Positions 35,701 to 46,139 of a stretch of 64,000 nucleotides of DNA are shown here, piece by piece (the first letter of the stretch is position 1; each line of letters opens with the position of its first letter). Source of the DNA: an uncultured Nitrospirota bacterium (GTDB lineage: Bacteria > Nitrospirota > Thermodesulfovibrionia > Thermodesulfovibrionales > Dissulfurispiraceae); assembly GCA_964540275.1 (NCBI GenBank), contig CAZIMB010000001.1, positions 27,210 through 91,209 of the forward strand. Reading direction: 5' to 3'. The position numbers and the translations under genes are program-made. The notes under the pieces were generated by a model, which had not been told where the DNA came from, ran no database searches, and saw only the letters and a program-made list of their open reading frames with translations.

Positions 35701-36867
35701 TTAACCCTGCAATTCAAGTATAAAGCATTTAAGATATTCTGTCTCGGGAACAGAAAGAAGGACAGGGTGATCCCTGCCCTGGGAGCGATATTCAATGACC
35801 CTAATATCCTTCTTTGAATCTTTTGCGGAACTACGAAGCATTTCACTGAAAATGTTTTTATCAATATGATAAGAACAGGATGATGTAGCAATGATTCCAT
35901 TATCCTTAATAAGCCTCATAGCCATGGAATTTATTTCCCTATATCCTCTTATCGCCTCTTTAATTTTTTGTCTACTTTTTACAAAGGCTGGTGGATCAAG
36001 TATTATAAAATCATAAAGACTTCTATTATCTATCTCTTTTTTAAGAAAAGAAAAAACATCCTCTTTTACAAAATTACATCTGTCTATGAGGTTATTTAAT
36101 ATGGCATTTTTTTTAGCCATGGTTAATGAAAAATCAGACTCATCAACAAAGGTAACATATGCCCCATTTTTAACTAGTTGTAAACCCCATGCCCCGGAAT
36201 AACAAAATAGATCAAGCCCCCTACCCTTTTTTATATATTTCCCCAAGGCAATTCTATTCTCTCTTTGATCAAGAAAAAAACCTGTCTTCTGCCCATGAAA
36301 AGGATCTACTTCAAAAAAGAGGTCTCCTTCCCTAATAATTGGCAAAACCTCAAGTTTTCCTTTAATTATTTTTTTTTCCATGGGAAGTCCTTCAAGGATT
36401 CTGGTAGGGGAGTCATTTCTGACAATAATAACATTCGGAGAAAATATCTCATCAAGTATATCAATAATTGTTTGCGCTAGTCTTTCCATTCCAAAGGTTA
36501 GAATCTGGATTACAAGACAATCTGCATACTTATCCACAATGACGCCAGGTAAAAAATCACCCTCACTGTAAATAACTCTAAAAGAATTATTATCAAGTAG
36601 TAACCTTTCTCTATATTTAAGTGCATTTCTTATCCTTTTATAGAAAAAATCACTATTAATGGGTTCCTTTTTCTTTGTTAGAAGTCTAATTGATATAAGA
36701 GAATGTGGATTAATATAGCCTATGCCTAAAAATTCCTTTGTCTTAGAATAAATCTCAACGAGATCGCCCTGTGAATAATCCTTAAGCCTGCTATATATTT
36801 CATTAGAAAATATCCATAAATGACCGCTACGCAATCTGCTTGTACGATTTAAATAAACCTTTTCCAT
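35701..36867 (-). CDS. rlmI: Class I SAM-dependent rRNA methyltransferase, RlmI-like (PUA + MTase)
   Basis: N-terminal RSGHLWIFSNEI (PUA-like), SAM-binding LDLFCYSGAWG, DPPAF motif ILDPPAFV. Confidence 0.8.
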   Translation of the reverse strand: MEKVYLNRTSRLRSGHLWIFSNEIYSRLKDYSQGDLVEIYSKTKEFLGIGYINPHSLISIRLLTKKKEPINSDFFYKRIRNALKYRERLLLDNNSFRVIYSEGDFLPGVIVDKYADCLVIQILTFGMERLAQTIIDILDEIFSPNVIIVRNDSPTRILEGLPMEKKIIKGKLEVLPIIREGDLFFEVDPFHGQKTGFFLDQRENRIALGKYIKKGRGLDLFCYSGAWGLQLVKNGAYVTFVDESDFSLTMAKKNAILNNLIDRCNFVKEDVFSFLKKEIDNRSLYDFIILDPPAFVKSRQKIKEAIRGYREINSMAMRLIKDNGIIATSSCSYHIDKNIFSEMLRSSAKDSKKDIRVIEYRSQGRDHPVLLSVPETEYLKCFILELQG

Positions 36868-36883
36868 ATTAAAATTATAACAT

Positions 36884-36950
36884 CAGAGTAGATATCATTA
36901 CTAAACAATAATTTGTAAGAAACATTAACTTAATCACAGATTAGGGTCCT
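36884..36950 (+). repeat. Intergenic repeat element, copy D (termini only, internally deleted)
   Basis: CAGAGTAGATATCATTACTAAACAATAATTTGTAAGAAACATT (left end, compare copy B GATAGATCATTAGTACAATTCGTAAAGAAATATT) is joined directly to AACTTAATCACAGATTAGGGTCC (right end, compare copy C CCTAATTAAGGATTAGGGACAG). Confidence 0.5.
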
Positions 36951-37032
36951 TACAAAAAATTTCATTGATTTATATTTTTAATATTGCTTATATCAACTGT
37001 TTTTTGTTATAAATATATTAAGATAATATTTT

Positions 37033-37212
37033 GCCTGCCCTGCTCGTGGTTAGGTGGAAGTGTTGATCCTGCAAATCAGATATTTTGGGAGTCAGCGTAA
37101 GGAAAACGGTGTGCAGGCCTCTCTTAGAAGAGGAAGCCTAAGTTTCCTTCAAGACACCCACCTGTCAAAACAGGGATCTGATTTTTCATCTACACGGCTG
37201 GGCGGGTTTTTT
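37033..37212 (+). ncRNA. Candidate structured sRNA of about 180 nt with a rod-like fold (6S-RNA-like architecture; family not confirmed)
   Basis: The only GC-rich island in a 670-bp AT-rich intergenic region. A hand fold gives nested helices: 34-48/193-206 (13 bp), 51-57/186-192, 73-81/176-184 (9 bp, perfect), 87-93/153-159, 99-105/143-149, an apical hairpin at 118-122/129-133, and a side hairpin at 161-174. There is a 15-nt asymmetric loop at 58-72. It ends in T6 (37207-37212). G-U pairs (36:204, 54:189, 57:186) only work on the plus strand. A -10-like GATAAT sits at 37022-37027. Confidence 0.55.
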
Positions 37213-37540
37213 GATGACAATGGATAGCTGGAATTTAATAAATATATTATAAAATAGAATCTCAGGGAGTTTATAATTTAAGGATAGATAAATGCCTTTT
37301 ATATATAATATCTAAGATACTTATAGTATAATCCCTGTTATTTTCTTGCCTTTTATTACCTGTCTATCTCATTGTCATCACAAAAAACATTTAAACTAAG
37401 GCAACTATAAACAATTTTTTCTTTCTCATTGAAGAGGGTAATAATTCAAAAGCTGATAATTCTCCATAGGCCTAAGAGACTAATTACCCATTTATAATGG
37501 GAAAGCAATTAAATACAAACAATTAGGAGGGAAGAGCCCA

Positions 37541-39109
37541 ATGAATAATAATTTTGTAATCCTGTTTCTTGTTGCTATTGCCATTGGAATTGCAATTGGT
37601 CTGACATTTGTTATTATTTATAGAAACCACCTTCTATCAAAAAAAGAAGCAATTGAGAAGGAAAGGGAAAACCTTTTAAGGGATGCCCAGAGAGAGGCAG
37701 AGGCAATAAAAAAAGAGGCTTCTATTTATGCAAAGGATCTTTCATATCAGGCAAAAGCAGAGGCAGAAAGGGAAATTAGGGAGAAGACCAAAGAGATTAA
37801 TCAGATCGAAAAAAGATTGAGGTATCGTGAGGAACAGTTAGAAAAGCGACTTGATCTGATTGAAAAAAAGGAAGCCGATCTTAACAGGAGGGAAAAGGAA
37901 ATCATTAATCGTGAACGGGGTTTGTCTGAAAAGGAAAATCAAATCGCACTGCTTATAAAGGAACAGAATGCTACATTACAAAGGATCTCTGGTTTAACAG
38001 CAGAAGAAGCAAGACAGGAATTATTTAAAAAAGTTGAAGAAGAGGCAAGATTAGATGCTGCCAGGCTTGCTAAGAAATTAGAAGACGAAGCAAGAGAAGT
38101 CGCTGAGAAAAAGGCTAAAGAAATAATCAGTTTTGCTATTCAAAGATACGCAGGTGATTATGTAGTTGATGCTACCGTGTCAGCTGTAAGTCTTCCAAAT
38201 GATGAGATGAAGGGTAGAATTATAGGTAGAGAAGGTAGAAATATAAGGGCATTTGAAGCCGCTACAGGTGTTGATCTTATTGTTGATGATACCCCTGAAT
38301 TAGTTACCTTGTCCGCATATGACCCTGTAAGAAGAGAGATAGCGAGGATAGCTTTAGAAAGATTAGTTGCAGATGGAAGGATACATCCAACAAGGATTGA
38401 AGAGGTCGTTGAAAAAGTTAAAAAAGAGGTTGATACAACGATACGCGAAGAGGGTGAAAGAGCTGTCTTTGACCTCGGGATTACTGGAATGCACCCTGAA
38501 TTGATAAAGATTGTAGGTAGACTAAAATACAGAACATCATATGGACAAAATATTCTTCAGCATTCAAAAGAAGTCGCCTATCTTGCAGGCATGATGGCTG
38601 GAGAACTTGGCGTTGATATAAAACTTGCTAAAAGGGCAGGATTATTGCATGATATAGGGAAAGCCGTAGACCATGAAATGGAAGGTTCCCATCAAGAGAT
38701 AGGATCAACCATTGCTAAAAAATATGGAGAAAACGATTATGTAATAAATGCTATAGTTGCTCACCATGGTGAAGTTGACCCCATATGCATTGAATCAGCT
38801 CTTGTTGCAGCAGCCGATGCCCTATCAGCAGCAAGACCAGGAGTTAGAAGAGAAAGTATAGAAAACTATCTTAAGAGACTCAAGAAATTAGAAGAACTTG
38901 CTATGTCCTATGACGGAGTTGACAAATGTTATGCTATTCAGGCAGGAAGAGAGATCAGAATCATTGTAAAACCTGAAAAGATAAATGATGATATTTGCGC
39001 TTTGATATCAAGAGAACTTGCCAGGAGAATAGAGTCAGAGATGACATATCCCGGGCAAATAAAGGTGACTGTTATTCGTGAATCAAGGTATGTAGATTAT
39101 GCAAAATAA
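37541..39109 (+). CDS. rny: Ribonuclease Y
   Basis: N-terminal TM anchor, long coiled coil, KH domain ([15 protein letters not shown]), HD domain (LLHDIGKA...VAHH). SD AGGAGGGA upstream. Confidence 0.93.
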
Positions 39110-39207
39110 GGTTTATTTGTGCTTGACAATGTCTGATTACAATTAAACATGCTCCTTTGTCAGATACTTTAATTGCAATTTAGTTTTTTAATTTTAATGA
39201 TGATTAG

Positions 39208-39987
39208 ATGAGAATTTTATTTATTGGTGATATAGTCGGCAGGAATGGTAGACAGGCGGTAAAAAGTATCCTGCCAAATATTGTAAGCAGGTATAAGATA
39301 GATTTTGTTATAGCTAATGGCGAAAATGCAGCAGGAGGTTTTGGAATAACTGAAAAGGTAGCAAAAGAACTCTTTAATGAAGGCATCCATGTAATTACTA
39401 CTGGTAATCATGTCTGGGATAAAAAAGAGGCACTTTCCTATATTGTGAAAGATAATAGAATATTAAGACCAATAAATTACCCATCTGGCGTACCGGGCTA
39501 TGGTAGCATTGTTGTAACTCTATCTACTGGTAATAAAGTTGCAGTAATAAATGTATCTGGTAGAGTATTTATGAATACCCTTGAATGTCCTTTCAGAACA
39601 GCACAAAAAGAGGTAAATAGGCTAAAAGAAATCACAAATAATATTGTAATAGATTTTCATGCAGAGGCAACATCTGAAAAAATAGCCTTTGGATATTATA
39701 TGGACGGATTAGTAAGTGCTGTTGTTGGCACACATACCCATGTTCAAACAGCAGATGAAAAGATTTTGCCTAACGGCACAGCTTATATTACTGATGTTGG
39801 AATGACAGGTCCCCTTGTATCCGTTATTGGTATAGAAAAGGAGCAGATAATAGAGAGATTTCTCTTGCAAATGCCTAAAAAGTTTGATGTCGCTGGAGGT
39901 AAAGGAATATTTTCTTCTGTTATAATTGAGATTAATCAAAATGGAAAGGCAATAGGGATTCAAAGATTACAAATAACTAATCCATGA
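39208..39987 (+). CDS. ymdB: YmdB-family metallophosphoesterase (TIGR00282-like)
   Basis: MRILFIGDIVGRNGR...ANGENAAGGFGIT...GNHVWD. Conserved rny-ymdB gene pair. Confidence 0.88.
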   Translation: MRILFIGDIVGRNGRQAVKSILPNIVSRYKIDFVIANGENAAGGFGITEKVAKELFNEGIHVITTGNHVWDKKEALSYIVKDNRILRPINYPSGVPGYGSIVVTLSTGNKVAVINVSGRVFMNTLECPFRTAQKEVNRLKEITNNIVIDFHAEATSEKIAFGYYMDGLVSAVVGTHTHVQTADEKILPNGTAYITDVGMTGPLVSVIGIEKEQIIERFLLQMPKKFDVAGGKGIFSSVIIEINQNGKAIGIQRLQITNP

Positions 39988-46067: not shown

Positions 46068-46139
46068 CTGGGGCGCCAGGATTCGAACCTGGGAATGGCA
46101 GATCCAAAATCTGCTGACTTACCGCTTGTCGACGCCCCA
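46068..46139 (-). tRNA. tRNA-Gln (anticodon UUG); CCA not encoded
   Basis: The minus-strand sequence is TGGGGCGTCGACAAGCGGTAAGTCAGCAGATTTTGGATCTGCCATTCCCAGGTTCGAATCCTGGCGCCCCAG. It has a 7-bp acceptor stem, a GCAGA/TCTGC anticodon stem with loop TTTTGGA, and a T-arm CCAGG-TTCGAAT-CCTGG. It is close to E. coli tRNA-Gln. Confidence 0.92.

Follow-up and report, generated by a model that had tools for sequence, protein, structure and literature searches.

Positions 37029-37212 (+) of the window, the 64,000-nucleotide stretch of DNA analysed here, are best explained as the 6S RNA (ssrS) gene of a Thermodesulfovibrionales (Nitrospirota) bacterium, an assignment that can be made with high confidence. 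As a mimic of an open promoter, this small RNA sequesters RNA polymerase. Regarding the family assignment, a cmscan search against all 4227 Rfam families returned a sole match in the region, RF00013 (6S/SsrS), with an envelope of 37029-37212 (+), a score of 87.8 bits (E = 5e-16) against a gathering score of 46.4 bits, and coverage of model positions 1-187 of 187, so that the match is not truncated. The sequence-only reading of this DNA had called a 6S-like RNA, had seen no hallmark of SRP RNA, RNase P RNA or tmRNA, and had asked for comparison with Rfam; the full-length RF00013 match, the homologues and the covariation described below bear out the call, and no other family comes near threshold in a permissive scan of 36800-37600. 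That the RNA merely resembles 6S and belongs to a different structured family (SRP, tmRNA, RNase P, Ms1 or an unknown sRNA) is extremely improbable. A rod shape alone is unspecific, no point in support of such a family was found, and the next-best plus-strand match in 36800-37600 is a eukaryotic lncRNA model with 22 bits versus a cut-off of 50; the remaining Rfam matches reach 20 bits or less, all of them under their own cut-offs. In common with the 6S/SsrS family (RF00013; E. coli ssrS), the window RNA has a full-length model match, a length of ~180 nt, a closing stem, a central bubble and an internal arm, as well as the consensus blocks GGUGUGCA, GGAAGCC, CACCCACCUG and ACGGC..GCGGG, a single-copy gene and a sigma-70-type promoter. 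This 6S gene is of a standard kind that is found by routine Rfam-based annotation.

The 6S gene is located in a spacer of 673 bp between an open reading frame (ORF) on the minus strand (35701-36867) and one on the plus strand (37541-39109), and its G+C content of 48% (37029-37212) exceeds the roughly 25-31% of the flanking windows, in agreement with the GC-rich folded RNA in a ~670-bp spacer that had been described from the sequence. Pfam domains identify the left flank as a PUA-domain SAM methyltransferase, encoded on the strand opposite to 6S, and the right flank as RNase Y followed by YmdB. The conserved downstream neighbour rny (37541-39109, +) contains the RNase_Y_N, KH and HD domains of RNase Y, and its nearest loci in public genomes, from Thermodesulfovibrionales/Nitrospirota MAGs, show up to 78% identity. 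The partner of 6S in the window is thus rny-ymdB, as opposed to ygfA in E. coli, and zapA, absent from the upstream position in the window, is replaced there by the PUA-SAM methyltransferase gene on the opposite strand; upstream ORFs in the relatives vary in size and strand by locus, and a short zapA could have been missed among them. The window also contains a tRNA gene at 46068-46139 (-), scored at 58.4 bits, with an anticodon loop that reads UUG (Gln) by eye.

The 6S match is conserved in each of 41 genomes sampled from the bacterium's own family and order, 40 of which score above the cut-off, and phylum-wide in 78 of 81 genomes at E <= 0.001, with 65 above the cut-off. The window's genome (1.76 Mb, 99% complete) contains one 6S match only. 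Second, weaker 6S-like matches of 29-49 bits, some of them partial, were observed in genomes G001, G004, G007, G012, G015, G019, G024, G025, G030, G032, G037 and G040 and may be 6S paralogues. Covariation was counted in a MAFFT alignment of 46 copies, for which RNAalifold gave 35 base pairs, 17 with compensatory changes. Such changes affect the closing stem, the helices on either side of the bubble, the apical hairpin and the small 3'-bubble hairpin, as illustrated by G-C/G-U/A-U at 37037/37203 and by U-A/A-U/C-G/G-C within the internal arm. In the Rfam-derived structure, 87.3% of cells are paired, compared with 34-52% in slid-partner controls, and none of 500 shuffles reached this structure on four of five measures, the remaining measure (further pair types) being reached by 9/500. 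What covariation preserves is thus a rod of ~180 nt made up of closing stem, large central bubble and internal/apical stem, and the search for homologues with covariation that had been proposed from the sequence gave a positive answer on both counts.

The same alignment bears on the 57-aa ORF at 37054-37227 (+), for which an open frame with a GTG start does exist. That this frame is coding and the RNA fold incidental is barely credible: stop codons break the corresponding frame in 35 of 45 relatives, so that the ORF is not coding, apical-loop indels among the relatives are not multiples of three, and conservation tracks base pairing instead of codons.

Regarding the architecture of the 6S RNA, the closing stem GCCUGCCC-U-GC-U-CGUG / CACG-GC-U-GGGCGGGU (37033-37048 / 37193-37207, +) comprises 14 bp interrupted by a single U-U mismatch and a single bulge, which confirms, with slightly different counts, an earlier description of a 13-bp closing helix followed by a T6 tract (37207-37212). 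Across the 46 sequences, 96% of its cells are paired, and four of its pairs show double changes. The U-U mismatch of the window, 37041/37199, is a U-A pair in 45 of the 46 aligned copies. Next to the closing stem, a lower internal helix UAGGUGGAAG (37051-37060 / 37183-37192, +) appears in the minimum free energy (MFE) fold and, with only two of its pairs in the RNAalifold consensus, is a weakly supported prediction. Helix P2, the downstream duplex, follows with its 5' strand at 37062-37069 (+), paired with 37174-37182 according to the Rfam consensus. The central bubble consists of a 5' strand that is unpaired in the Rfam consensus and corresponds to the -10-like open region (37070-37086, +) and a 3' strand with the small hairpin CCUGU-CAAA-ACAGG (37160-37175, +). 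This hairpin, noticed beforehand as a side hairpin and confirmed as CCUG(U)/(A)CAGG at 37161-37174, has covarying arms and is formed with at least 3 bp in 38/46 relatives, in which the arms read CCUGU/ACAGG, CCUAU/AUAGG, CCUUUU/AAAAGG or CUUAG/CUUAAG. Beyond the bubble, the internal (upstream) arm (37087-37159, +), as given by the Rfam consensus and the fold, contains GGG.GUC/GAC.CCC, AAGGAAA/UUUCCUU and the apical hairpin CCUCU/AGAGG (37118-37133). The helix 37087-37093 / 37153-37159 is 100% paired with three covarying pairs, and the apical hairpin is formed in 43 of 46 copies with differing arm sequences. The helix 37101-37107 / 37142-37148 is only 60% paired under direct mapping of the Rfam pairs; the RNAalifold register, one column off, covaries well, and the low value is an alignment-register problem that provides no evidence against the helix.

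The plus-strand MFE is -66.4 kcal/mol with a modest z-score of -3.36, and none of 200 shuffles folds as well. The minus strand is as good a folder (z = -4.31), and energy by itself is therefore no guide to the strand. The plus strand is instead assigned from the covariance-model match, which occurs on the plus strand only, from the U-G wobble 37036/37204, which is invariant in 46/46 copies, and from the conserved upstream promoter that faces the same direction.

The alignment also bears on two mutually exclusive helices at the downstream edge of the central bubble. In the family consensus, the core of P2 is GAUCC (37065-37069) / GGAUC (37174-37178); 94.0% of P2 cells are paired, with a covariation score of 0.146, and the pair adjoining P2 at the bubble edge (alignment columns 46/166) reads CG in 15 sequences and GC in another 15. 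The perfectly complementary 9-bp helix AAAUCAGAU / AUCUGAUUU (37073-37081 / 37176-37184, +) is 93.5% paired with the same score of 0.146, a value as high being reached by none of 500 shuffles, and double changes are found in five of its nine pairs, including C37077-G37180 of the window (U-A in relatives) and UAUAUC/GAUAUA in locus L064. The independent compensatory events behind this covariation are few, namely eight cells in five pairs, and its 3' strand is also constrained by P2. For each of the two helices, no shuffle comes up to the observed value on four of five measures, and every slid control falls below it in percent paired and in covariation score. They share the 3' strand GGAUCUGAUUU (37174-37184, +), which pairs either with P2 (37174-37182) or with the 9-bp helix (37176-37184), and formation of the latter consequently excludes P2. 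The pattern of covariation indicates that both helices are maintained in evolution.

A helix of this kind, formed upon product-RNA synthesis between the P2 3' strand and the distal 5' bubble, is defined as the central bubble collapse helix of B. subtilis 6S-1 and A. aeolicus 6S, for which it was inferred from probing and mutagenesis (PMC8876501). Both RNAs contain a small pre-formed 3'-bubble hairpin, whereas in E. coli-type RNAs a 9-bp 3' hairpin grows instead (PMC8876501). In silico, blocking of 14 nt (37059-37072) in the window RNA gave all nine collapse-helix pairs together with a 5-bp 3'-bubble hairpin. Among the relatives, P2 is present in the free MFE fold in 40/46, and at least six of nine collapse-helix pairs form after the template block in 40/46. 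When the template is blocked, no extended 3'-bubble hairpin of about 9 bp, as in E. coli, is formed; the hairpin keeps its 5 bp, and the P2 3' strand joins the collapse helix. The window RNA resembles B. subtilis 6S-1 (bsrA) and Aquifex aeolicus 6S in the small hairpin already present in the 3' bubble and, in silico, in the helix that joins the distal 5' bubble to the P2 3' strand when the template is occupied, and it differs from gamma-proteobacterial 6S, whose 9-bp release hairpin its 3' bubble cannot extend into, the freed strand entering the collapse helix in these predictions. The collapse helix of B. subtilis contains tandem G-U pairs and weak A-U pairs (PMC8876501); that of the window, in contrast, consists of nine perfect pairs, lies within 1.2 kcal/mol of the P2 conformer and shows covariation in 46 sequences.

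The predicted energies in the window are -66.4 kcal/mol for the P2 fold, -65.2 kcal/mol for the collapse-helix fold and -63.6 kcal/mol for the canonical fold with the 5' bubble forced open. Since the conformers are nearly isoenergetic, the free RNA of this genome may not sit mainly in the open-bubble form, as far as such modelling goes. The fold drawn in the sequence-only reading is a real low-energy conformer (-65.2 kcal/mol versus the MFE of -66.4), and because its perfect 9-bp helix is the central bubble collapse helix, the drawing corresponds to the released (collapsed) conformer and not to the promoter-mimic ground state of the family consensus. The complementarity of 37073-37081 and 37176-37184 had thus been recognized correctly, and it is the place of this helix in the RNA polymerase-binding fold, where it competes with P2, that does not hold. 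Likewise, the single-stranded 5' bulge exists in that conformer, measuring 14 nt (37059-37072), and is not the bubble, the true central bubble being 37070-37086 / 37160-37173. By analogy with known 6S RNAs, this "15-nt bulge" would be the template of the product RNA (pRNA): on the basis of E. coli and B. subtilis 6S and of the in silico block, the predicted pRNA template (37059-37072, +) would be copied in the 3'-to-5' direction, beginning at about C37072, G37071 or U37070 and continuing through the P2 5' strand.

What is known of E. coli 6S and B. subtilis 6S-1 allows a mode of action to be proposed. The ~180-nt rod would offer an open central bubble (37070-37086 / 37160-37173), flanked by helices, as an open-promoter mimic, and would fill the active site of the housekeeping sigma-RNA polymerase holoenzyme, leading to less transcription in slow growth. 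Upon nutrient upshift, the polymerase would copy the 5' bubble strand and the P2 5' strand into a short product RNA predicted to begin 5'-GCAGGAUCAAC... or 5'-AGGAUCAAC..., and this synthesis would unwind P2 (GAUCC/GGAUC). The freed 3' strand could then pair with the distal 5' bubble in the collapse helix (AAAUCAGAU/AUCUGAUUU), with the small 3'-bubble hairpin persisting, and the collapse of the bubble would release the polymerase. The modelling points to a release of the B. subtilis/Aquifex type and not of the E. coli type.

Regarding transcription of the 6S gene, a conserved promoter of the form TTGC(T/C)N, an 18-nt spacer ending in TGn, and TATAAA is found upstream and is represented in the window by TTGCTT-N18-TATAAA (36984-37013). 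The -35-like hexamer TTGCTT occupies 36984-36989 (+), with TTGCNN situated 17-18 nt upstream of the -10 in 29/46 relatives under a strict pattern. The extended -10 TGTTATAAA (37005-37013, +) comprises TG at 37005-37006 and TATAAA at 37008-37013; TGnTATAAA is present in 29/46 relatives under the strict pattern, and five more show TATAAC by eye. A consensus promoter scan missed this promoter because its -35 hexamer matches just three of six bases; it was found by comparing the upstream regions of the relatives. From the promoter geometry, transcription would start near 37020 and yield a short 5' leader. GATAAT (37022-37027), which ends six nt before G37033 and had previously been taken for a -10 element, is present in the window but was rejected in this role, as the relatives do not conserve it and instead keep TTGCTT-N18-TATAAA with the upstream TG, the conserved -10 being located about 20 nt further upstream. 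At the 3' end, the closing stem is followed by a terminator-like U6 tract (37207-37212, +), where the relatives mostly have GGGUUUAUU. In a subgroup of loci (L005, L039, L041, L044, L045, L047, L053 and L065), the conserved 6S promoter is missing from the usual position. These loci carry an AAGGAGG(T/C) block together with a short hairpin about 20-40 nt upstream of 6S and downstream of an ORF of ~215-240 aa, and co-transcription of 6S with that upstream gene may occur in them.

In Thermodesulfovibrionales, 6S, rny and ymdB almost always follow one another in this order on a single strand, and the order recurs in some Desulfobacterota (window 37029-39987; L002-L030, L031-L066, L068-L070 and L080). 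A same-strand rny follows 6S in 26 of 29 relatives picked by their 6S match, and two of the three exceptions are on the same contigs as the rny-selected loci L055 and L058, in which rny lies ~1.4-1.6 kb downstream of 6S; among Nitrospirota loci picked by rny, 18 of 19 have the arrangement. It is also found in four Desulfobacterota-type loci and is absent from the Clostridia and Omnitrophota loci tested. In other Nitrospirota classes, rny is alongside 6S in 7/30 loci and not in 23/30, indicating that the RNA exists independently of rny. An extended -10 motif was found in 0/24 intergenic regions between 6S and rny (37213-37540 of the window and those of 23 relatives), and a loose sigma-70 pattern occurs in five of these 24 spacers at unrelated positions. 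Although the lack of an extended -10 in these spacers is weak evidence for read-through co-transcription, rny may depend on read-through from the 6S promoter.

This linkage could also be read as a sign that the RNA acts in cis, controlling RNase Y synthesis as a 5' leader or attenuator within the rny mRNA, and is no free-standing regulator. The same-strand rny neighbour in 26/29 6S-selected relatives and 18/19 rny-selected Nitrospirota loci and the absence of a conserved extended -10 promoter between the two genes in 24 loci would suit such a leader, which is nevertheless very unlikely in view of the full-length 6S model match at nearly twice the cut-off, the persistence of 6S without an adjoining rny in 23/30 loci of other classes, the own conserved promoter of 6S and its end in a stem and U tract, and the separate leader of 328 nt between the 6S end and the rny start. 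Within this separate leader, the segment GATGACAATG (37213-37222), whose first base directly follows the U6 of 6S, is the exact reverse complement of CATTGTCATC (37370-37379), 148 nt on, and GATGACAATG/CATTGTCATC constitute a long-range hairpin in the rny leader. A motif (T)GGATAG-N-TG(C/G)AAT, a few bases 3' of 6S in the window (37221-37234) and in at least L019, L023 and L027, may mark a processing site or, alternatively, represent the -35 region of a promoter for rny.

With 6S as a regulator in its own right, the arrangement invites comparison with the ssrS-ygfA operon of E. coli, in which 6S is co-transcribed with the downstream gene and processed out. In both cases 6S is directly upstream of a conserved protein gene on the same strand; the window differs in that the downstream gene encodes RNase Y, a U6 tract follows the 6S stem, and co-transcription is putative. 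It is conceivable, though on balance somewhat doubtful, that 6S and rny belong to a single transcription unit in Thermodesulfovibrionia and in some Desulfobacterota. Transcripts starting at the strong conserved 6S promoter and running past a leaky stem-U tract would then account for most of the expression of rny (and ymdB), with 6S cut from the precursor. Nothing specific on a 6S-rny linkage was found in the literature searched.

By itself, the 6S gene is of minor value in that it supplies a missing ncRNA annotation for an uncultured Nitrospirota genome, and the assignment also eliminates the spurious 57-aa ORF. The Nitrospirota alignment has modest value because covariation in it backs the central bubble collapse helix on phylogenetic grounds. 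A further point of modest value is that the 6S-rny-ymdB linkage and the absence of a recognisable promoter from the 6S-rny spacer make co-expression of 6S and RNase Y testable in cultivable Thermodesulfovibrio. If the two genes do form one transcription unit, the output of a global transcription damper and that of the main mRNA-decay endonuclease would be coupled, as in E. coli ssrS-ygfA, with a functionally weightier partner.
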